Positions 3,413-19,171 of a stretch of 32,000 bases of DNA are shown here, in pieces; position 1 is the stretch's first letter; each line of letters starts with the position of its first letter. The notes beneath the pieces are model-generated. The model had not been told where the DNA came from. It worked only from the letters and a program-made list of their open reading frames with translations, and did not search any database. A program made the translations under genes and the position numbers. Source of the stretch: an uncultured Chloroflexia bacterium. GTDB lineage: Bacteria; Chloroflexota; Ktedonobacteria; Ktedonobacterales; JADMIN01. Where the stretch lies: assembly GCA_963718915.1 (NCBI GenBank), contig CAVRAI010000015.1:780001-812000 (forward strand), read 5' to 3'.

Positions 3413-3783
3413 AGCATCAATCTCCGTCTGTCTCTCACTCGCGTTCTTGCGCCTTACCAGTGGCGCTCACAGGGTCAAAAACGACGCGAGCCAACTACTC
3501 AAGCAGCCATAGAGTAGCCGAGCGAGAGGAGATATCTCATCGGCGGAAACACCCATCTTGGGGTTCGGCATCACCTATATTGGAGGTGACGGACAGTATT
3601 GAGGCGCGAGACAATCGTGCCGGATCCGAGAAGCCTTGCTACAGCAGTTAGAAGACAGTATGGTTCGGGTGACGCCAGTTCAATTGAAGGATTGCGAAAA
3701 TACGCTCTCTACGCCAATGCAATTGCGCTCAGGCTCTTCAATCCTTGTGGAGTTTATCCGTTTTGAGTTGTCGTTTACGCAAG

Positions 3784-3833
3784 CCCTAGCGTTTACGCTA
3801 CGGCGAATTTCCTGGCTCATTCACCGATTCGCC
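3784..3833 (-). repeat. REP-like two-hairpin element, copy 1 (inverted relative to copy 2)
   Basis: Hairpin A is ccctagcg-ttta-cgctacgg (3784-3803, one mismatch). Hairpin B is ggcgaat-N18-attcgcc (3802-3833). The reverse complement aligns with copy 2 at 12469-12511. The 18-nt tagcgtttacgctacggc is identical in both copies. Confidence 0.6.
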
Positions 3834-3933
3834 GAGGCATTCAGACGCCGGAACACTTCCACAATCTACAACATCTCGGACAAAAGCAGCATCATTTGGC
3901 TAGGAGGTACAGCCGCTTTAGAGTTCTCACGGT

Positions 3934-6687
<2,754 letters not shown>

Positions 6688-6691
<4 letters not shown>

Positions 6692-7689
6692 CGGAAGCCT
6701 CCTTGTGGCGTGGGCAGGTCGAGCGCCAGCACCTCCATCGTCAGCCGTGGGTTGGCGTTCGCCTCCAGCGCCAGTTGCGCGTCGAGCAGCGTCCGCAGAA
6801 ACGCCTGCGCGCGTTCCACGCCCAATGCGCGGCCTAGTCGCTCCGCCTGCTTCCGCAACGCGCCTGAAGTCACCAGATGGTTCGCCCCGCCCGCCGCCAG
6901 CACGACATCGCGCCACCAGAGTGTCCACAGTTCCAGCACGCGCCGCGCCGACTCCACATCCGAGCCGAGCGCGCCTGCCCGTCGCAGCCGTTCATCGCGT
7001 GAGGCCGTTGCCAGCCCGGCAAGCTCCTCGAGTTCATGGATGCGCTGCTCCCGCAGTTCAGGCTTCTCCGCGGCGCGCACAGCCCAGCCGAGCCGCCCAT
7101 TCGCCAGCCCCGCCAGCGTATGCGCCTCAACGTCGGGTACCCGCCACCGCTCGGAAAGCGCGCGCGCCACCTCGTCCGGGGAGAGCGGCAGCATAGGCAC
7201 GATCTGGCAGCGCGAGAGAACCGTGGGGAGCAGCGTCTCCGGCTCGGAGCTAGTCAACAGCAGGATGACCTGTGGCGCGGGTTCTTCCAGCGTCTTCAGC
7301 AACGCATTCATCCCAGCCAGTACCATCCGCTCGATGTCGGGAATCACAAAGATGCGCCAGCGTCCCTCAGTCGGCGCGAGGCTCGTCATTCGGATCATGT
7401 CACGAACGAGCTCGACTTTGAGCGTGCGTTCATCCTTCTTCGGTTCGATCAGTGTGACGTCGGGATGGTTGGCGTGGGCGATCTTCCGACAGGACAGACA
7501 CTCGCCGCATGGATCGCTGTCGGTGGGAGCGCGCCCGGTGCATTGCAGCAGGCGGGCAAATTCGAGCGCCAGCGTCGTTTTGCCGATATCTGAAGGGCCA
7601 GTCAATAGCCATGCGTGGCTCACGGCGTCGCCCAGCGCAGCGCGCTCCAGACGCGCCCGCGCCTGGTGATTGCCATAGACAGCACGCAT
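6688..7689 (-). CDS. holB: DNA polymerase III delta-prime subunit
   Basis: 333 aa: ...[28 protein letters not shown]...[23 protein letters not shown]...[10 protein letters not shown]...[18 protein letters not shown].... The RBS GAGGAGG lies upstream of ATG 7689. The stop TGA (6690-6688) overlaps the clpB GTG start (GTGA). Confidence 0.85.
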
Positions 7690-7861: not shown

Positions 7862-8512
7862 GTGGCTGGCGCTTTGCTGGAGATACCGCTGTTTCCACTT
7901 CACGTTGTGCTCTTTCCGGGAATGGCGCTGCCGGTACACATCTTCGAGCCTCGCTATCGCCGTATGACCAGCGATTGTCTGGATTCCAATCTTCCGATAG
8001 GCATTGTGCTGGCGATGCCTGGAAGCATCCATGGCCACGAGATTCCCGCTCCCGTGGGGACATTCGCGCGCATCGTTGACTACGAGCGGCTGGCCGACGG
8101 CCGTTATAACCTGCTCACCATTGGCACACAGCGTTTTCGCATCGTTGAGGCGTCGCGCGATAACCAACTTTATCTGATGGGCAGGGTCGAGCCACTGGAT
8201 GACGTGCCCGACGCCGATGCGCGCGAACAGGCCTATCTGGCGGCGGAGGCGCATGAGGCGCTGGCGGTCTATCTACGCACGGTGCTGACGTTGCTTGGCA
8301 GCGAGGAACGCGCCATCGCGGTGCCTGAGGACGCCGCCGACCTCTCCTATCTCATCGCCACCTGTCTCGGTTGTGATGACGACCAGAAGCAGCGGATACT
8401 GGAAATCACCTCGATTTCGGCCAGACTCACCGCAGGCATCCATGGCCTGCGCGCCGAGATTGAAGCGCTGGAGCGTCAGAGCGAAGATGGCGACCACGAT
8501 TCCCTCAATTGA
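7862..8512 (+). CDS. LON N-terminal (substrate-binding, PUA-like) domain protein
   Basis: 216 aa: LLEIPLFPLHVVLFPGMALPVHIFEPRYRRM...PIGIVL...GTFARIVDYERLADGRYNLLTIGTQRFRIVE. It starts at GTG with AGGGGGG upstream. There is no AAA+ or protease domain. Confidence 0.85.
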   Translation: MAGALLEIPLFPLHVVLFPGMALPVHIFEPRYRRMTSDCLDSNLPIGIVLAMPGSIHGHEIPAPVGTFARIVDYERLADGRYNLLTIGTQRFRIVEASRDNQLYLMGRVEPLDDVPDADAREQAYLAAEAHEALAVYLRTVLTLLGSEERAIAVPEDAADLSYLIATCLGCDDDQKQRILEITSISARLTAGIHGLRAEIEALERQSEDGDHDSLN

Positions 8513-8924
8513 CTCTAGCCTCTTGCCTGCTGTCGCGAAGCTTGTTCATGTCTCTACTCTACTGTCTATTTTGTCAAATGGTCTGACACCAATAGTGCTT
8601 GCGTTGCATTGGCGCCGACATGTGAGATGATGCGATAGTACAACCTGTCCAGGGGGTGATCACAGAGAGCGTATCGTGTCATGATAGAGTGGGAAGACAA
8701 GCGGGCATGGCAGAGGCTAATGAAAGCGAGCAAGCGATATCGGGGGCGGATATGGTATTTGAGTCCGCTACAGACCAGAGATTCGAACATATATCAACGT
8801 GTAGGCTGCACGTACAATGCCTGAGCGACAGAAGATCGTGTGACTGAGCTCTTGTGTCGTGCTGGACGCATGAGTAACAACGTCGGTGGGTAGCTGTGTC
8901 ATTCTTGAAAATTGGGAGACAAAG

Positions 8925-10745
8925 ATGCCATTTACCGTCCAGCACCTTATTGAAGGACGCGCTGCACCAGTTACAGCGCGACCAGAAGAATCCGCCTCGG
9001 CAGCGTTAGAGCGAATGATTGAGCAAGATTTCAGTCAGTTGCCTGTCGTTGATGACAACGATACTGTGCTCGGCGTTGTCACAAGCGATTCCCTGGCTCG
9101 TGCCGTCAATAATTTGGGTGTTCCACTTTCTGCGCTCCATGTTGCCGATGCGCTGGATCGTAAACCTGAGGTTCGCGCAGAGGACGATCTATTTGATGTC
9201 CTTGACGATCTTAGTAAGGCATACGCTGTTTTGATCGTGGATGGTCATCGACATTTGCAAGGCATTGTGACCAGCTACGACGCGATGGAGTATTTTCGAC
9301 GACGTGCCCAGGATACGATGCTCGTCGAAGATATCGAACTTATGCTACGTGAACTCATTCGCGCGGCATTCACCGACGGCGACGGCATTGTGCAGCAGTC
9401 GCAACTGGATGAGGCCATCGAAATGGTCACCGATCCAACACGAGGACTGGCTGATCGCTTTGAGACAGGGCTACGCCAATACCTGAACCTACAGAATCTT
9501 GATGGTAAGCCAGTATCGCTCAACCGAGAATGGGTGGCGCAGTCTTTTGGTCGCATGGTTGATCGAGTACCTACCAAATCGTTCGATCAACTGGCCCTGA
9601 GTGAGTTCATCGAACTCATTGTAAACAGGTCGCAGTGGGATCGCTACAGCAGCCTCTTCAACCTCGACACGGCAGCAGTGCGACAAATGCTGGATAGAGT
9701 GCGGAGGACGCGCAATGATTTAGCACATTTCCGCGGTCAAATCTCAGCCATGCAGCGCGATCATCTACAATACTGCGCCCGATGGCTCACGTATCACCTC
9801 TCCCCTTTTGAAAAGCGCCAGCTAGCTCAATCTAGCAGGGTTGCTCTTCCTGATGAGGTGGTTCATGTCAGTCACGCGAGTAGTGGCGCCGTAGCAGATG
9901 TTGCCGATGCTGGAGATCTGGAACAAAACGGAGAGGTCCCTGAGGAAGCTATCGAGCCACGAGATAGTAGATATGCCCCACTCGCCCTCTTCCTGAAAGG
10001 GCAGATTCGCGACCGCGAGCGGGTGACGCTGACCTTTTCGGAGATTGAGAACATCATCAAAGAACCTTTGCCACCAACTGCCCGAGAGCACAGATCTTTC
10101 TGGGCAAACGACAGCGTTGGCCATGTGCAATCGCGGCAATGGCTGGATGTCGATTGGCGGGTGTCAAGTGTTGATATGTCGAGCGAGGTGATTGTCTTCA
10201 CCCGCATCAAGGAGCGCGAGAAGCTGTATATCGCCTTCTTTAGCGCACTGCTGGCGTCGGTACGGGAGCATACGCCATTTCCAATACGGAACGTCTCTCC
10301 CGATGGCCAAAGCTGGATTACCGTCGCGGGAATACCGACTCAAGGCCCGCAGGTTGCCACATTCGCATTTTCGTTTGCACGCAATCAGCGCTTCCGCATC
10401 GAGCTCTATATCGACAAGAGTGACAAAGCCAGCAACAAGCGTATCTTCGACTATTTGTATTCTAAGCGACATGAGATCGATGACACGCTATTGCCAGACA
10501 GAAATGACTCTCTGGCCAACCCATTCAGTATTACCATGGGTTGGGAGCGACTTGATGATAGGCGCGCATCGCGCGTGGCGTTATACTGTCCAGCATCTAT
10601 CACGGATGATAAGAGCGATCTGGACCTTGTCATCTCATGGGCAGCAGGTACTGGACTGAACTTCGCGGAACTGATGAACCGGCTTGTCGCCGAAGCAATT
10701 CGTGAGGTTCGTTTGAGTGGCCTGGGTAATGGAAGTGCTGAATGA
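8925..10745 (+). CDS. Multidomain protein: CBS pair + Swt1-like HEPN (predicted RNase) + small 'YAPL..LTFSEIE' module + DUF4268-like C-terminal domain
   Basis: ATG 8925 has GGGAGA upstream; the protein is 606 aa.
- CBS1/CBS2: ...ALERMIEQDFSQLPVVDDNDTVLGVVTSDSL... and ...LFDVLDDLSKAYAVLIVDGHRHLQGIVTSYDAMEYF.
- HEPN: ...LSEFIELIVNRSQWDRYSSLF...MLDRVRRTRNDLAHFRG, with R-x4-H at nt 9711-9728.
- Small module: RYAPLALFLKGQ...VTLTFSEIENIIKEPLPPTAREHRSFWAND...HVQSRQWLDVDWRV..VD....VIVFTR.
- DUF4268-like: ...RFRIELYIDKSDKASNKRIFDYLYSKRHEIDDTL...WERLDDRRASRVALY....
GC is clearly lower than in the flanks. Confidence 0.85.
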   Translation: MPFTVQHLIEGRAAPVTARPEESASAALERMIEQDFSQLPVVDDNDTVLGVVTSDSLARAVNNLGVPLSALHVADALDRKPEVRAEDDLFDVLDDLSKAYAVLIVDGHRHLQGIVTSYDAMEYFRRRAQDTMLVEDIELMLRELIRAAFTDGDGIVQQSQLDEAIEMVTDPTRGLADRFETGLRQYLNLQNLDGKPVSLNREWVAQSFGRMVDRVPTKSFDQLALSEFIELIVNRSQWDRYSSLFNLDTAAVRQMLDRVRRTRNDLAHFRGQISAMQRDHLQYCARWLTYHLSPFEKRQLAQSSRVALPDEVVHVSHASSGAVADVADAGDLEQNGEVPEEAIEPRDSRYAPLALFLKGQIRDRERVTLTFSEIENIIKEPLPPTAREHRSFWANDSVGHVQSRQWLDVDWRVSSVDMSSEVIVFTRIKEREKLYIAFFSALLASVREHTPFPIRNVSPDGQSWITVAGIPTQGPQVATFAFSFARNQRFRIELYIDKSDKASNKRIFDYLYSKRHEIDDTLLPDRNDSLANPFSITMGWERLDDRRASRVALYCPASITDDKSDLDLVISWAAGTGLNFAELMNRLVAEAIREVRLSGLGNGSAE

Positions 10746-10766
10746 CAGAGTATTTCGTTCATTCTT

Positions 10767-11234
10767 TCACACTGCCGATGAGTCGTAGTCCGCGATGCGC
10801 CAGCGATTCTGCTCCAGCGTGAGTTGCGCCTGTGCTGAAGTCGCCATTAGTGTGCCGCGCGCGAGCGTGAGGGTGAGTGTGGCGCTACTGGCGCCTTGCC
10901 CCGCCACGGTAGAGCTACACGCGCGCGCCGTGCCCAGTTGCGCGTCAAGTTGGCGCTGGCTGGCGACGAATTGGTTCTGAGTACCGAGGGCCTGTTCAGC
11001 GGTTGAGAGCAGCCCATACAGGTCGCCATACTGCTGTGCGGTGAGGTCGCTGCAAATCTGGCGCGCGACCGGCCCAACCGCTGGACTGTTCGTGGGCGGC
11101 GCGGTCACTCGCGAGAGGAGCGTGATTCCCAGGATGACAAGGATAATGCCCGCCACCACGCCCAGCGTTAGCGGTAGCCATCGCGGCGTGCTCCGGCGTG
11201 TTGGTATGATCGTTGCGGTCGGGCGGTCGTTCAT
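10767..11234 (-). CDS. Hypothetical membrane-anchored protein
   Basis: 155 aa. It has an N-terminal TM anchor (WLPLTLGVVAGIILVILGITLL) followed by a small soluble domain (...CSDLTAQQYGDLYGLLS...LTLEQNRWRIADYD). Coding-like GC3. Confidence 0.7.
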   Translation of the reverse strand: MNDRPTATIIPTRRSTPRWLPLTLGVVAGIILVILGITLLSRVTAPPTNSPAVGPVARQICSDLTAQQYGDLYGLLSTAEQALGTQNQFVASQRQLDAQLGTARACSSTVAGQGASSATLTLTLARGTLMATSAQAQLTLEQNRWRIADYDSSAV

Positions 11235-11422
11235 GCGGCTTGCGCTCCTCCTGGCTGGGATAACTCCGTCGCAGTATAGTCGCCCGCGCCAGGGTGCGAC
11301 AATGACGCGGGCGAAAGGTACGCCGCTACGGTGGCTGGCATGCGCGCGCGCGATGCGGTAGAGTTTGGAGCAGACGGACGAGGTGTAAAGGCACGACTAA
11401 GTGCGACACGAGGAAATAGAGC

Positions 11423-12043
11423 ATGGCAGCGAAGGCGGAACGACCGGCGTCCACGCGCGCGCCGCTGATTGTCGGCATAACCGGCGCGAGCGGCGTGGTG
11501 ATGGCCTGTCGAGCCATCGAGGTGCTGGGCGAGCTGGGCATTCCGATGCATATCACCTATACCCAGGCATGCCGCCAGGTCTGGCCCGACGAGATTGGCC
11601 ATTCCTTCAACGACGATCTGGCCGACTGGAAGCGCCGCTTTGGCGCGCGCGTCTTCAATTCCGAGGACTTTCGCGCGCCGATGTCCAGTGGCAGCTTCCT
11701 CACCTCCGGGATGCTCGTCATCCCCTGTTCGATGCGTACCGTCTCGGCCATCGCGCAGGGTCTCTCGTCCAATCTGCTCGAACGCGCCGCCGACGTGGTG
11801 ATCAAAGAGGGGCGACCGCTGGCGCTGGTTCCGCGTGAAGCGCCACTTTCGGCGATCCACCTGGAAAATATGCTCAAGCTGGCGCGGCTGGGCGTGCGTA
11901 TCGTGCCGCCGATGCCGCAATTCTATCTGCGCCCGCAGACGGCGGACGAGATCGTCGACCGGATGGTGCGCCGCTGCCTGGCCGTCCTTGGCATCGAGGA
12001 GGCGCTGCCCCCAGAGATGCGCTGGCGTGGCGACGAAGAATAG
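11423..12043 (+). CDS. ubiX: Flavin prenyltransferase UbiX
   Basis: 206 aa: LIVGITGASGVVMACRAIEVL...MLVIPCSMRTVSAIAQGLSSNLLERAADVVIKEGRPLALVPREAPLSAIHLENMLKLARLGVRIVPPMPQFY. The RBS GAGGA lies upstream. Confidence 0.9.
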   Translation: MAAKAERPASTRAPLIVGITGASGVVMACRAIEVLGELGIPMHITYTQACRQVWPDEIGHSFNDDLADWKRRFGARVFNSEDFRAPMSSGSFLTSGMLVIPCSMRTVSAIAQGLSSNLLERAADVVIKEGRPLALVPREAPLSAIHLENMLKLARLGVRIVPPMPQFYLRPQTADEIVDRMVRRCLAVLGIEEALPPEMRWRGDEE

Positions 12044-14682: not shown

Positions 14683-17232
14683 CTATGAGCGACAAGAATC
14701 GTTGCCACGGCGACAGCCACGAACCTCTACATCGCCGTCATTCGGTAGGGTATTCTTCCAATCCTCCATTACGAGCGATGGCGGCGCATCGACTGGAGCG
14801 CTACCCCACGCGCGATTGGGCGTTGACGCCATGGTATAGGTCAACACATTGGCGTCGGCGAGTGTTGAAAGCGGCAGCCATTGCGAGCTGTATGACGAGC
14901 CATCGACGAGCAATTGCTGGACATATGGAGCCTTCTGACTGGCCCCATTCGCGACGATGCTGACGCGGTGGCCGCCAAGTGTCAGCGTCACACGCGGGAA
15001 GAGTGGGCTGCCCAGCACAAAGCCAGCGCGCCCCGGAATCAGCGGATAGAGTCCGAGTGCGGCCCACACATACCATGACGACATCGTGCCAAGATCATCG
15101 TTGCCCGGCAGGCCGGTGGGTGAATTGTTGAAGAGCGCATTCATGACACGACGAACTGCCGCTTGCGTCTTCCATGGCGCTCCAACGTAGTCATACAGCC
15201 ATGGGGAGCCGAACGATACTTCATTGCCCATCCACGCCTGAGGTTCACGTGGCCCGACATTGATGTTCGCGAGATACGCATCGAGCCGCTGTTCAGCATG
15301 CGCGCGTCCCCCCATTCGCGCGATGAGGCCGCCAATGTCGAAGGGAATCATCCAGGTGTACTGGCTGGCGGTGCCTTCGATGAAGCCGTCCATGCTCGCA
15401 CCGTTGCCCACAAAAGCGCCGTCATAGGTGCGCGGTTGGATAAATCCGGTCGCGGGGTTGAAGAGGCGCGACCACTGCGATGCCCTGGCGGCGAAGGCTT
15501 GCGCCGTGGCGGTATCGCCGATGCGCGTGGCGAAGCATGCAATCGCGTAGTCAGCGGTATAGTATTCGAGCGATGTCGCGGCTGGCGCTCCGACGTTCGC
15601 GTCTAGCGGAACGTAGCCCATGCGCAGGTATTGCGCAAGACCGGGCCGCTCCTGCGCTCCTGGCTCCCCAACGCCGGGATGAGTAGCGCCTCGTACCAGC
15701 ACGCGCAGCGCCGCCTCCGCATCAAAGGTGTCGGCTCCAAATGCCAGCCCCTCGGCGAGGATCGGCGCGGCGGGATCGCCCACCATCAGGCCAGTGTCAA
15801 TGTTTGCCAGCGACCATCGCGGCAGACCGCCACCCTCCTCCGCGTCCAACACGAGCGACTGCATCATGTCGCTCACCTGCTTCGGCGCAATCATCGCGAT
15901 CAAGGGTATCTGGGTGCGGTAGATGTCCCAGCCGGAGAAGTTGGCGTACTGCGTGTGGCTGGTATCCGTGTGAACGCGCTGATCGAAGCCACGGTACTGC
16001 CCGTTGACATCGCTGAAGGTGTTGGGCTGGAGGAGTGCATGGTAGAGCGAAGTATAGAAGGTGTGGGTATCGGCGGGTGCGCCGCCTGAGACCTGAATCT
16101 GGTTCAGCATCGCATTCCAGATGGCATGCGCGGAGGCGCGCACCCCATCGAAGTCCCAGCCGGGATTCTCCGCCGCCAGATTAGCTTGAGCGTTCGCGAT
16201 GCTCACATACGACAGCCCGACCTTGAGGAGCAACTCGTTCCCAGTGGCGGGTGGGAATTCCAGGTATAGCCCGCTCTGCGAGCCGCGCGCCTGACGCGCT
16301 CCGGGCGCCACGTTGCCGTGCCACGCGCCGAATGCGCTCGCCGGTCGGCTGAATTGCGCTACGAAGTAGATAGTATAGGTGGATGACAACACATTGCAGA
16401 AGTGGCCGCCCCTGACCCAGCCAGCCACCTCGTTCGGGCCGACAAGCTGGGCCTGGGCATCGTAGACCGTCTGGATATCTGTGCCAGTCTCGATAAGTAG
16501 CGTCTGCCGTTGTCCCGCGGGATAGCGAATACGGGCAAAGCCACTCCGCTGCGTGGTCGTCAGCTCGACGTTGATCCCATTGCCCAGCAAGACGCTATAA
16601 TACCCCGGCTCCGCGGCCTCGTGGCTGTGAGTAAAGGTTGCGCTGTAGCGCTCGCCGCTGGTGGGAGGCGCGGAGTCCACCGCTTCAGTGGTCGGCATGA
16701 AAGGGATATCACCAGAAACGTTGCACCCCGCGCCGTCGATATGCGTCATGCTGAAACGTTCGATGCGGTGATCACTGTAGGTGTAGCCGCTGGGGTCAAG
16801 CGCCCATGATGGTGTCGGGCCTGAGTCAGGGCTGAACTGCGCCATGCCAAAGGGCAGCGTCGCGCCGGGGAATGTCTGGCCGCTGCTGCCGCCGTCGCCG
16901 AAGCTACGTCCGGCCCAATCACTGCCGATGAAGGGATTGACGTATTGTGTCAATGCCATTGGCGCGAGCGCCTCGCCGCCCGATGTCGCGTCACTCGAAG
17001 TGGCATGTTCCACTGGTACGTGGGTGATGCCGCTGATCGCATTTTGTATGTTTGTCAGATGGGTCGAGGAAATAGCAAGTAACCCACTGGCCACAACTGT
17101 TACCAGCAGCAACCAGATGATCCACCCTCGGAGTGGGCGCGCGCTCTTCACCTGCCGCTGTGTCCATCTCCACACGTGCCGCAACCCATGCGGTAGCGCA
17201 TCGCCCACACGCTTCAGTCGATTGTGCTTCAC
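14683..17232 (-). CDS. Glycoside hydrolase family 92 (alpha-mannosidase-like), membrane-anchored or secreted
   Basis: 849 aa with an N-terminal TM (WIIWLLLVTVVASGLLAI). GH92-type motifs are YVNPFIGSD...GQTFPGATLPFGMAQFSPD and ...GLPGNDDLGTMSSWYVWAALGLYP. It starts at GTG; the exact start is uncertain. Confidence 0.88.
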   Translation of the reverse strand: MKHNRLKRVGDALPHGLRHVWRWTQRQVKSARPLRGWIIWLLLVTVVASGLLAISSTHLTNIQNAISGITHVPVEHATSSDATSGGEALAPMALTQYVNPFIGSDWAGRSFGDGGSSGQTFPGATLPFGMAQFSPDSGPTPSWALDPSGYTYSDHRIERFSMTHIDGAGCNVSGDIPFMPTTEAVDSAPPTSGERYSATFTHSHEAAEPGYYSVLLGNGINVELTTTQRSGFARIRYPAGQRQTLLIETGTDIQTVYDAQAQLVGPNEVAGWVRGGHFCNVLSSTYTIYFVAQFSRPASAFGAWHGNVAPGARQARGSQSGLYLEFPPATGNELLLKVGLSYVSIANAQANLAAENPGWDFDGVRASAHAIWNAMLNQIQVSGGAPADTHTFYTSLYHALLQPNTFSDVNGQYRGFDQRVHTDTSHTQYANFSGWDIYRTQIPLIAMIAPKQVSDMMQSLVLDAEEGGGLPRWSLANIDTGLMVGDPAAPILAEGLAFGADTFDAEAALRVLVRGATHPGVGEPGAQERPGLAQYLRMGYVPLDANVGAPAATSLEYYTADYAIACFATRIGDTATAQAFAARASQWSRLFNPATGFIQPRTYDGAFVGNGASMDGFIEGTASQYTWMIPFDIGGLIARMGGRAHAEQRLDAYLANINVGPREPQAWMGNEVSFGSPWLYDYVGAPWKTQAAVRRVMNALFNNSPTGLPGNDDLGTMSSWYVWAALGLYPLIPGRAGFVLGSPLFPRVTLTLGGHRVSIVANGASQKAPYVQQLLVDGSSYSSQWLPLSTLADANVLTYTMASTPNRAWGSAPVDAPPSLVMEDWKNTLPNDGDVEVRGCRRGNDSCRS

Positions 17233-17470
17233 GCAACTCTCTCAGGCTTAGCGCCCGCTCTGGCGCGTCGTCCGTTCGCGCATAGGGGTCTATCCTGCCT
17301 GAGAGCCACGATTCTGGCAAGCTACTAGGCCATTCCTCCCTGCGATGATTGGCTGCCATGTGGACTAGTGGCTCATCTATGCTGGTTGGAAGGTCGTATG
17401 GATCCATTGGGTTGCGGCAATCGGGTAGAATTGCATCACATGAGAGGGACATCCACAATGTGAGGCAGCT

Positions 17471-17674
17471 ATGAAGGTGCGCGAGGCGATAGAGTATATT
17501 GAACGTGACGGCTGGTTTCAGGTTGCTATGGTAGGCGATCATCGCCAATACAAACATGCGTCGAAGAAAGGGCGTGTAACGATTCCGGGAAAGTTGAGCG
17601 ATGACCTGCTGCCTAAGACGGCTCGCAGTGTATTCAAACAAGCGCAAATACCCTGGCCTAAGGGACGACGATAG
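17471..17674 (+). CDS. hicA: HicA-family mRNA interferase toxin
   Basis: 67 aa: MKVREAIEYIERDGWFQVAMVGDHRQYKHASKKGRVTIPGKLSDDLLPKTARSVFKQAQI. This is a typical YcfA/HicA layout (G-x-H-x-x-Y/F-x-H...G..T.P). It lies in a lower-GC islet. Confidence 0.85.
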   Translation: MKVREAIEYIERDGWFQVAMVGDHRQYKHASKKGRVTIPGKLSDDLLPKTARSVFKQAQIPWPKGRR

Positions 17675-17701
17675 CTGATTCTAGAAGAAGGGTATGATCA
17701 T

Positions 17702-17953
17702 ATGCGGTACCGTTTTCTGGTGGTCTATGAGCAAGGTGAACACAACTATAGCGCCTATGCGCCTGATCTCCCCGGCTGTGTATCTACCGGCGCAACGCTA
17801 GGCGAGACGCGCGAACATATCCGCGAGGCCATCGCATTCCATCTGGAAGGCATGCGCGCTGATGGTGAAGACATTCCTTTCACTGATCCTGCTGAGGTCG
17901 CGGAGTATCTTGAAGTTGAGATTGCTGATCCAGCCACTATACCTGGCAATTAA
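17702..17953 (+). CDS. hicB: HicB-family antitoxin (UPF0150-type, no appended DNA-binding domain)
   Basis: 83 aa: MRYRFLVVYEQGEHNYSAYAPDLPGCVSTGATLGETREHIREAIAFHLEGMRADGEDIP. It lies 27 nt downstream of hicA, with the RBS GAAGAAGGG. Confidence 0.85.
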   Translation: MRYRFLVVYEQGEHNYSAYAPDLPGCVSTGATLGETREHIREAIAFHLEGMRADGEDIPFTDPAEVAEYLEVEIADPATIPGN

Positions 17954-19171
17954 CTGGGGTGGCGTTCACCGAGCAGCGTGTCGATGCCCATAAATGCGTG
18001 CAGGGCTGAAGGGAGCGCCACCGAGCTATCCGCGCGCTGCCCGTTCTCCAGCAGCGCCGCCAGCGTGCGCCCCAGCGCCAGCGCCGAGCCATTGAGCGTG
18101 TGCGGATAGCCCGCGCGTCCGCCGCCTTTCGGGCGGTAGCGCAGATGCAGGCCGCGCGCCTGGAAGGCGCCACAGTCGCTCACCGACGATATCTCCACAT
18201 AGCGGCCCTCGCCCGGCATCCATACCTCCAGGTCAACCGTCCGCTCCGCCGCGAAAGGCAGTTCGCCCGCGCAGAGCGCCACCACACGATATGGCAGCGC
18301 CAGTTGTCGTAGGGTCGCCTCCGCGTCGGCCAGCAGCGTCGCAAAGGCTGCATCTGCCGTCTCAGGCGTCGCGATGCGCACCAGTTCTACCTTATCGAAC
18401 TGATGCTGGCGAATCAGCCCTCGTTCTCGTGCGCCGGCCGAGCCAGCCTCGCGGCGGAAGGCGGGCGTGCAGGCGGTGTAGGCCAGCGGCAGCGCCTCTT
18501 CTGTCAGCGTCTCGTCGGCATGGAGCGCCACCAGTTGCGTCTCCGCCGTTGGGCTGAGCGCCAGAGCGTCCGCCGAGAGCTGATAGAGGTCGTCGGCGTA
18601 GCGCGGCAGATGGCCTGTGCCTTCCAGGATGGTCGTACGGAGCAGATGCGGCGGAGCAACCTCAAGATAGCCACGCTCGCGGTGCATGTCGAGGAATAGT
18701 GTTGCCAGCGCTCGTAGCAGCCGCGCGCCGTCGCCCACGAGCAGCGGGAAGCGTGGCCCGGCCAGCTTCGTCGCCCGTGGCAGATCGAGAATGCCCAGCG
18801 CGGTCATCAGTTCGTCGTGACGCTTTGGCGAGAAATCGAAGACTGGCGGCGTTCCCCATTGGCGCAACTCGAAATTGCCCTATGCGTCATGGCCATCGGG
18901 AACGTCATCGCGAGGTAGGTTGGGGATGCGCGTCAGCAGGCCGTGCTGCTCCTCTTCGAGCGGCTTGAGCCGTGCCCGTGTCTGCACGGAGCGCCAATGG
19001 CTCGCTTTTGCTGGCAGCCAGCGTATCATGCTCGCTCGCCAGCGTTCGCCGCTCGCCATCCAGCGCCAGCCAGCGCTCTAGCGCGTCGTACGTTTCCGGC
19101 GCGGACCCTCGCCGCCGCAACCCCTCGCGGACGCGGTCGGGCTGGGCGCGCACTAGCCGTTCGCTCAACAT
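17950..19171 (-). pseudogene. serS: Seryl-tRNA synthetase, disrupted by a frameshift in the N-terminal arm plus an in-frame TAG
   Basis: ATG 19171 (RBS AGGAGGG) gives MLSERLVRAQPDRVREGLRRRGS...LDGERRTLASEHDTLAASKSE.... The sensible text then moves to another frame (...RLKPLEEEQHGLLTRIPNLPRDDVPDGHDA). That frame hits TAG at 18882-18880 and continues GNFELRQWGTPPVFDFSPKRHDEL.... The class II core is intact: FRREAGSAGARERGLIRQHQFDKVE, TVDLEVWMPGEGRYVEISSVSDCGAFQARG, NGSALALGRTLAALLENGQ. Confidence 0.85.

Follow-up and report, generated by a model that had tools for sequence, protein, structure and literature searches.

Results

A solitary gene occupies a low-GC islet

We analyzed a stretch of 32,000 nucleotides (the window) from an uncultured Chloroflexia bacterium (contig CAVRAI010000015.1 of assembly GCA_963718915.1, positions 780,001 to 812,000 of the forward strand), and in it an islet at positions 8513-10760 that holds one gene. 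A first reading of the letters (hereafter the sequence-only reading) had proposed that this gene encodes a one-polypeptide HEPN RNase, gated by a CBS pair and acting in phage defense. Homology of the predicted protein to DS-11, a validated anti-phage protein, supports that proposal. The features of the islet are collected in Table 1.

The islet differs in composition from the DNA on either side of it. The GC content of segment 8513-10760 is 52.2%, versus 63.5% on both flanks, and no other 2.2-kb interval of the 32 kb is as low in GC (z about -3.6). The dip described in the sequence-only reading is therefore real and beyond chance, but its depth had been overstated (43-47% against about 65%): values of 47% or less were found in just 9% of the 100-bp windows of the islet, with a minimum of 44% at 10413. 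The GC content at third codon positions was 0.53 in the gene and 0.69-0.81 in its neighbors. An independent Logan contig covers both islet junctions at 99.97% identity, and so the islet is not an assembly chimera.

The gene starts at ATG 8925. A single long open reading frame (ORF) on the plus strand extends from 8886 (GTG) or 8925 (ATG) to 10745. The ATG, not the GTG, is the right start, because it has a Shine-Dalgarno sequence 5 nt upstream and because the N-termini of homologues begin there: in the family alignment they uniformly open with MPFTVQ or MPYxV at the equivalent position. These findings confirm the ORF and the product of 606 amino acids (aa) that had been read from the sequence. 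The start codon is separated by 412 bp from the preceding gene, which encodes a Lon-N-domain protein (7862-8512). The description of this interval as non-coding held up, in that neither a credible ORF nor an Rfam family, a tRNA, a terminator or a flanking repeat was found in 8513-8924; Rfam at the gathering threshold and ARAGORN, both run on the whole window, returned nothing. A repeat search around the islet found no direct or inverted repeats flanking it as an insertion scar. A promoter and terminator scan found nothing above shuffle expectation; a sigma-70 scan is a poor test for this type of organism.

Table 1. Features of the islet, with window positions
Feature	Positions	Strand	Basis or remark
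Upstream non-coding part of the islet, GC 0.50	8513..8924	+	without a credible ORF
Probable remnant of an hsdM1-type methyltransferase gene (degraded 3' end)	8825..8878	+	peptide match, colinear position
Shine-Dalgarno sequence GGGAGA	8914..8919	+	5 nt 5' of ATG 8925
606-aa ORF: CBS pair, HEPN, linker, DUF7662, DUF4268	8925..10745	+	ORF calling, Pfam, alignment
CBS pair (Bateman module), aa 1-127	8925..9305	+	Pfam CBS x2, Foldseek
All-helical HEPN-type domain, aa 128-296	9306..9812	+	DS11 profile, weak HEPN-clan matches, AF2
Rx4H catalytic motif R263-N-D-L-A-H268 (predicted)	9711..9728	+	alignment, DS-11
Variable disordered linker, aa 297-345	9813..9959	+	pLDDT < 50 at aa 307-340; not conserved
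DUF7662 small alpha/beta domain, aa 346-428	9960..10208	+	Pfam 5e-10
DUF4268 domain, aa 429-600 (alpha-beta3-alpha2-beta2-long alpha)	10209..10724	+	Pfam, PADLOC, AF2
AF2, AlphaFold2; pLDDT, predicted local distance difference test score.

The protein combines a CBS pair and a predicted HEPN domain with two C-terminal domains

The domain reading in the sequence-only reading was right in its four parts, each of which Pfam recovered: two CBS domains, DUF7662 and DUF4268, and HEPN_Swt1 below its threshold. A full-length AF2 model built on 43 homologues had a mean pLDDT of 86 and consisted of the CBS pair, a helical region (aa 117-306), a disordered stretch (aa 307-340) and two alpha/beta domains.

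The CBS pair resembles those that bind adenosyl ligands. The two Pfam CBS matches scored 63.4 bits (cutoff 24; 2.4e-17), and in Foldseek the pair matched CBS pairs bound to S-adenosylmethionine (SAM), AMP and ATP at E values of about 1e-7 and target TM scores of 0.76-0.89. A PDB sequence search with the full protein gave CBS matches only, and when Foldseek compared the full-length model with PDB, CBS pairs saturated the results. The ribose-binding motif of CBS domains is G-h-h-[ST]-x-x-[DN]. This pattern is present in the family alignment at G113-D119, where the second CBS domain reads G113-I-V-T116-S-Y-D119; the first has G50-V-V-T53-S-D-S56. Residues G50, T53, T116 and D119 are invariant in the 43-homologue alignment. 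In addition, F36 (nt 9030-9032) sits in a D[FY]SQLPV motif whose aromatic position is F or Y across the family.

The helical region carries a conserved Rx4H motif, at the place where R263 and H268 had been proposed. Residues R263, N264 and H268 are invariant in the 43 homologues (RNxLAH), in agreement with the Rx4-6H pattern with a polar residue after the arginine. The profile search around this motif also recovered a match of the HEPN segment to the DS-11 family (see below). Matches to Pfam families of the HEPN clan were weak and recurrent. The HEPN_Swt1 match to aa 216-288 was sub-threshold at 14.3 bits (cutoff 27.5; HEPN_Swt1 scores of 14.3-17.7), and members of the family gave weak matches to HEPN_Swt1 (best 5e-4), Abi_2 (0.002), HEPN_Apea and DUF4145. 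The PADLOC model RTasHEPN matched the window protein at 0.005. The AF2 model of this region contains helices only, and a sequence profile of it found no solved relative in PDB.

The N-terminal half is related to the anti-phage protein DS-11

DS-11 (WP_000257686.1; NF053863) is a one-protein CBS+HEPN anti-phage system of E. coli, described with DefensePredictor (Science 2026; PMC13092281). Its defense is abolished by Y157A, which alters a predicted adenine contact, and by R330A or H335A (PMC13092281). The best curated match of the window protein was the NCBIfam family DS11_antiphage (NF053863; E 1.7e-33), in which aa 5-168 aligned with profile positions 75-238; the HEPN segment, aa 216-288, separately matched positions 234-305 of 305, that is, the last 72 (E 1.9e-8). 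By BLASTP, window residues 3-269 were colinear with DS-11 residues 124-336 (E 2e-17), and the alignment placed DS-11 Y157 opposite F36, and R330 and H335 opposite R263 and H268. In both proteins a single chain holds a CBS pair and, after it, HEPN; both form single-gene systems and conserve the D[FY]SQLPV aromatic residue and the Rx4H motif.

The window protein also differs from DS-11 in several ways. It lacks the N-terminal ~120 aa of DS-11 (profile positions 1-74 were unmatched), its HEPN domain has an insertion of ~52 aa, and its C-terminus is longer by 260 residues, which hold DUF7662 and DUF4268. Its whole-protein score against NF053863 was 116.1 bits, versus an equivalog cutoff of 260 bits; shorter relatives scored 82-129 bits. 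A genuine DS-11 of 365 aa, recovered by tblastn from an E. coli record and containing Y157, R330 and H335, scored 404.9 bits. A HMMER search with the CBS+HEPN half listed only members of its own family among the best 150 matches, and DS-11 was not among them. With its sub-cutoff score, missing N-terminus, insertion and C-terminal extension, the window protein is no DS-11 equivalog; it is distantly homologous to the DS-11 core.

Two observations on other relatives were made along the way. The record NZ_CP141089.1, a 4.9-Mb E. coli chromosome filed as a 'plasmid' and nearly unannotated in the plasmid collection, holds an unannotated DS-11 gene (positions 5632-6729 of our locus L087). Haloarchaeal plasmids (H2-H5; for example NC_006394.1, 128928-129665) encode relatives with CBS and HEPN only, at ~28% identity over aa 3-289, that are annotated just as 'CBS domain-containing protein'.

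The C-terminal domains are shared with modification-dependent defense systems

DUF7662 is a promiscuous adaptor domain. Pfam matched it at aa 363-426 with 39.5 bits (cutoff 26), and its invariant residues are L382, P383, R390, W393, N395, H400, W406, L407 and W411. Elsewhere it occurs alone or fused to Ser/Thr kinases or to a weakly Hjc-like nuclease. We found no mention of it in the literature searched. Two Ktedonobacter proteins of ~500 aa (L062, 9263-10762; L064, 9215-10711) have DUF7662 and DUF4268 behind an N-terminus of ~245 aa without a Pfam match, so that the sensor module may be shared and the effector another one. Three stand-alone DUF7662 proteins of Alphaproteobacteria (L079, L080 and L081; 127-136 aa) share a C-terminal tail, G-x-MKGT-x-x-I-x-PGVDLT-x-P, that is reminiscent of short antitoxin-like tails.

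DUF4268 connects the protein to enzymes that act on modified DNA. Pfam matched it at aa 435-580 with 51.5 bits (cutoff 27; 1.4e-13), and aa 426-594 matched the PADLOC profile PDC-S11 (Madara) at positions 220-370 of 375 and their equivalents (E 1.3e-14). The N-terminal nuclease part of the PDC-S11 profiles (NucS-like PD-(D/E)XK, with D63) found no match in the window protein. Madara, which is PDC-S11, restricts T4 containing glucosyl-hydroxymethylcytosine and not unmodified T4, and has an N-terminal NucS-like nuclease, to which the tested catalytic residue D63 is assigned, and a C-terminal putative modification-sensing domain (bioRxiv 10.64898/2026.09.05.749240). MdgA and MdgB, both modification-dependent nucleases, contain DUF4268, and MdgA degrades modified, not unmodified, T4 DNA in vitro (bioRxiv 10.1101/2025.02.28.640651). 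DUF4268 is also fused to GmrSD type IV enzymes (PMC4619093). The sequence-only reading had assigned the C-terminal domains to 'nucleic-acid or target binding'; that assignment is now more specific and points to modification-dependent systems.

We also modeled aa 343-606 separately (pLDDT 85, pTM 0.73). A conserved charged cluster in DUF4268 comprises R491, E493, D497, N504, K505, D509, E541, R542, R547 and R550. We considered DUF4268 as a second nuclease and rejected this, since no nuclease fold was found and the tested catalytic residues of Madara and MdgA are assigned to predicted nuclease domains. A faint similarity of the C-terminal model to YbjN and chaperones of type III secretion systems was not significant, and we do not trust it. 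One family member (P0141, 690 aa) has an extra MGMT-type DNA_binding_1 domain C-terminal to DUF4268; the same addition is reported for some GmrSD enzymes (PMC4619093).

The family is patchily distributed

Searches recovered hundreds of full-length homologues with 41-70% identity. The CBS+HEPN half alone recruited 270 clusters (at 50% identity) with E values of 1e-30 or lower, and these fell into length classes of about 290-340, 390-440, 500-560 and 580 aa; the discrete classes indicate that C-termini in the CBS+HEPN family are modular. Two loci gave longer products from naive ORF calls, 1108 aa in an Archangiaceae bacterium (L023, 33-3359) and 992 aa in Longimicrobium (L041, 1380-4358), which may be N-terminal fusions or may reflect extension of the ORF upstream in high-GC DNA.

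We found the gene in about 70 species representatives out of 185,579, dispersed across seven or more phyla. These include Chloroflexota, Cyanobacteria, Acidobacteriota, Planctomycetota, Gemmatimonadota and Myxococcota, plus one member of the Pseudomonadales. An Anabaena plasmid carries one homologue, with genes for an integrase and an AbiEii toxin close by. No relative was found in the phage genome collection.

The distribution bears on whether the protein could be a housekeeping or stress RNase, in which sensing of nucleotides (energy charge, SAM or cyclic di-AMP) would regulate RNA stability with no link to phage. CBS pairs are common metabolic sensors, all neighbors of the gene in the window are housekeeping genes, and a 2013 survey suggested ligand-regulated RNA stability (PMC3710099). 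A core cellular function is hard to reconcile with a family of such patchy occurrence, with the foreign composition of the islet and with the lack of conserved synteny with housekeeping genes; restriction-modification (R-M), defense and mobile-element contexts recur instead, and the nearest characterized relative is an anti-phage protein. We consider this explanation very improbable.

Homologues are often found with type I restriction-modification genes

R-M genes (encoding HsdM, HsdS, HsdR or type IIG methylase-nucleases) lie within four genes of the homologue in about 27 of 63 loci, and in about 40% of the family's loci the gene is part of an R-M operon. Genes for EVE-domain proteins are nearby in 4 loci, and one homologue is flanked by a Schlafen/AlbA gene and hsdR, with an integrase gene adjoining. 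Other neighbors include toxin-antitoxin clusters, a STAND NTPase, an OLD-type ATPase and a DEAD/MZB helicase. Overall, the neighborhoods of the homologues are partly mobile and linked to R-M or defense and are not housekeeping operons, as the defense hypothesis predicted. The statement in the sequence-only reading that the gene has no partner thus applies to the window copy but not to the family, which is often paired with type I R-M genes.

At six or more loci, a full-length hsdM gene lies on either side of the gene, which is translationally coupled between them. The order of this cassette, hsdM1-X-hsdM2-(214 aa)-hsdS-hsdR, where X is the homologue, is conserved across phyla, and its HsdM proteins form two orthologous clades; it is one type I operon with two HsdM paralogues. 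The 214-aa protein encoded between hsdM2 and hsdS (11263-11907 in locus L090, equal to 13263-13907 in L005) is conserved and has a hydrophobic N-terminus and no Pfam match. A more divergent subfamily lies in EcoEI-type operons with the order R-S-X-M. Loci without R-M genes had heterogeneous, non-conserved neighbors, among which a PADLOC and Pfam scan found no further recurrent partner; matches to PD-T4-6 in these loci were rejected as generic kinases.

The coupling between two orthologous HsdM paralogues and the R-S-X-M operons of the second subfamily raise the question of whether the protein is a guard like PrrC, a HEPN RNase within a type Ic R-M operon. The RNase would be held inactive on HsdM or on the R-M complex, the C-terminal domains would dock rather than read DNA, and release would follow once the R-M system is disabled by an anti-restriction factor of a phage (an Ocr- or Stp-like protein, or a SAM-degrading enzyme). 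That SAM-bound CBS pairs are among the best structural matches of the CBS pair would fit such a guard. About half of the copies, including that in the window, have no R-M genes nearby, and the orphan copies nevertheless stay intact and constrained; moreover, DS-11 defends as a single gene and DUF4268 is found in stand-alone modification-dependent nucleases without a type I partner. Based on these results, we think that a guard role is unlikely.

The gene is intact, and the islet may derive from an R-M cassette

The closest homologue has 70% aa identity to the window protein and lies in the context hsdM1-X-truncated hsdM2. Nucleotide identity between the two loci is 72.6% from window position 8914 on, and DNA similarity starts no earlier than 8914. 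Upstream of this point, nt 8825-8878 encode the peptide ATEDRVTELLCRAGRMSN, which agrees at 11 of 18 positions with the C-terminus of HsdM1 from locus L084, AAEDRLAELLQRAGLISS. The peptide ATEDRVTELLCRAGRMSN also fits the HsdM1 consensus and the colinear position, and has an in-frame stop before it. The statistics of the match are weak (tblastn E 0.02; profile score at about the 95th percentile of shuffled sequences), and the DNA-level alignment was not significant, in that 55 of 300 shuffles scored as high. We therefore regard a remnant of hsdM of ~55 nt upstream of the gene as probable, with moderate confidence.

A series of decay was apparent among relatives: the cassette is complete in L090, has a truncated hsdM2 in L084, and is reduced to a truncated hsdM1 in L089. 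We take the putative remnant as moderate support for the view that the islet came in as a fragment of an hsdM1-X-hsdM2 cassette or is what decay has left of such a fragment. Such an origin, and the series in relatives, would also fit a window copy that is a silent relic of the broken cassette, without expression or use in this genome: its partner genes have all gone, and we found no consensus promoter, although the sigma-70 scan says little in this kind of organism. Against decay of the gene itself, the ORF has its full length, is preceded by a good Shine-Dalgarno sequence and keeps every family-invariant residue. The dN/dS ratio to the closest homologue was 0.13 in all domains, a value averaged over both lineages and with saturated dS. 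The window gene is an orphan that has remained intact and evolves under purifying selection, and we regard a silent relic as improbable. Our best explanation is that the islet is a phage-defense gene that was acquired by horizontal transfer and now stands alone.

Neighboring genes in the window

No hsdM, hsdS or hsdR gene was detected within the 32-kb window by tblastn or Pfam. The neighbors encode ClpB, HolB, the Lon-N protein, UbiX, a GNAT protein and a thioesterase, and further housekeeping functions (GH92, an aminoacyl-tRNA synthetase, penicillin amidase and cytochrome oxidase). The next gene is convergent, as the sequence-only reading had it: an ORF of 155 aa on the minus strand (10767-11234), whose stop lies 21 nt from that of the defense gene. 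No Pfam family matched its product, whose N-terminus has an apparent transmembrane segment.

The clpB gene (3934-6928, minus strand) is split into two overlapping ORFs, 5003-6928 and 3934-5247. The first ends in KLVREEV followed by ERGRYRR, and the second carries the sequence on, which points to one frameshift near nt ~5100, either a sequencing error or a pseudogene. Two more GC dips, at 3501-4000 (0.50) and 17001-18000 (0.53-0.56), are largely intergenic and gave no Rfam or tRNA match.

Discussion

A proposed CBS-gated HEPN effector with a candidate sensor of phage DNA

We favor the interpretation that the window gene encodes a defense protein in which the CBS pair binds an adenosyl ligand and gates a HEPN RNase, and in which DUF7662-DUF4268 supplies the sensing of infection; on balance we think this probable. 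The CBS pair would bind an adenosine-containing ligand, dimerize and gate the HEPN domain, as proposed for DS-11. The activated HEPN domain would then cut RNA with the Rx4H residues R263 and H268, and the cleavage would halt translation in the infected cell, leading to abortive infection or growth arrest. DUF7662-DUF4268 would replace the N-terminal domain of DS-11 as the infection-sensing part, and would most likely recognize phage DNA, above all hypermodified DNA, as proposed for Madara, MdgA, MdgB and GmrSD. If the protein senses modified phage DNA, the family would complement R-M systems, which phages with such DNA evade, and this would explain the frequent pairing with R-M genes.

Several points count against this interpretation. 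There is no R-M or other defense gene near the window copy and no recognizable promoter in the sigma-70 scan, which leaves its expression and function in this genome hypothetical. We saw no antitoxin-like partner that would account for restraint of toxicity. No HEPN Pfam model matched at or above its threshold; the HEPN assignment draws on the motif, the DS-11 homology and the weak HEPN-clan matches. Identity to DS-11 is just 25%, and the score against the DS-11 family is below the equivalog cutoff. The model of aa 343-606 had no significant fold match in PDB or among viral proteins, including EVE and PUA folds (best E 0.08), and hence neither a nuclease nor an EVE-like C-terminal fold is confirmed. 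The role of DUF4268 as a reader of modified DNA is itself a proposal in the papers cited above. Finally, we infer the RNase activity, the ligand, the sensing of DNA by the C-terminal domains and the outcome of infection.

A more elaborate version joins the reader to the R-M operon. The protein would couple a reader like those of type IV enzymes to an RNA-cutting abortive effector, with the CBS pair reporting an adenosyl metabolite, and would serve as a back-up between the HsdM paralogues. The metabolite would be, for example, SAM, or methylthioadenosine after attack by a phage SAM-degrading enzyme, and the protein would fire when the type I R-M system is evaded or disarmed. We offer this combination tentatively and think it rather unlikely.

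Comparison with known systems

The predicted protein is similar to Csm6 and Csx1 (CARF-HEPN) in that a small-molecule-binding domain is fused to what is here a predicted dimeric HEPN RNase. It differs from them in its sensor, which is a CBS pair and not CARF or SAVED, and in having no cyclase or CRISPR partner. With PrrC/EcoprrI and RloC it shares a HEPN-type Rx4-6H motif, the occurrence of the family in type I R-M operons, where PrrC-type nucleases form a second line of defense, and a nucleotide-sensing domain in the same polypeptide. The regulator of PrrC is an ABC-ATPase, whereas the N-terminus here is a CBS pair; there is no sequence relationship beyond the motif, and the window copy has no R-M partner. 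Madara, MdgA, MdgB and GmrSD share DUF4268 with the window protein and are, as we predict for it, single-polypeptide defense proteins that join a sensor to a nuclease and complement R-M or BREX. In these systems the effectors are DNases (NucS-like PD-(D/E)XK, or DUF262/DUF1524), in contrast to the predicted CBS-gated HEPN RNase.

CBS-HEPN fusions were noted computationally by Anantharaman et al. in 2013, who proposed nucleotide-regulated cleavage of RNA (PMC3710099). The fusions described there have the same CBS+HEPN combination, some with HD; DUF7662, DUF4268 and R-M cassettes are not mentioned. The sequence-only reading knew of no characterized system with this architecture, which no longer holds for the CBS-HEPN core: this is now of a known kind, validated with DS-11 (2025/26). 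The fusion to DUF7662-DUF4268 and the hsdM1-X-hsdM2 cassette have not been described.

DS-11 is the only characterized CBS-HEPN defense protein, and the window gene belongs to a much larger and more diverse branch, found in Chloroflexota, Cyanobacteria and other phyla, not in enterobacteria, and, unlike DS-11, often in type I R-M operons. In this branch the accessory domain has been exchanged for one known from modification-dependent nucleases. Modified DNA, the status of the R-M system and an adenosyl metabolite thereby arise as candidate triggers of CBS-HEPN effectors. If our interpretation is correct, it would give DUF7662 a first functional context, would widen that of DUF4268, and would add a counterpart with an RNase output to complementary pairs such as BREX-BrxU and BREX-Madara.

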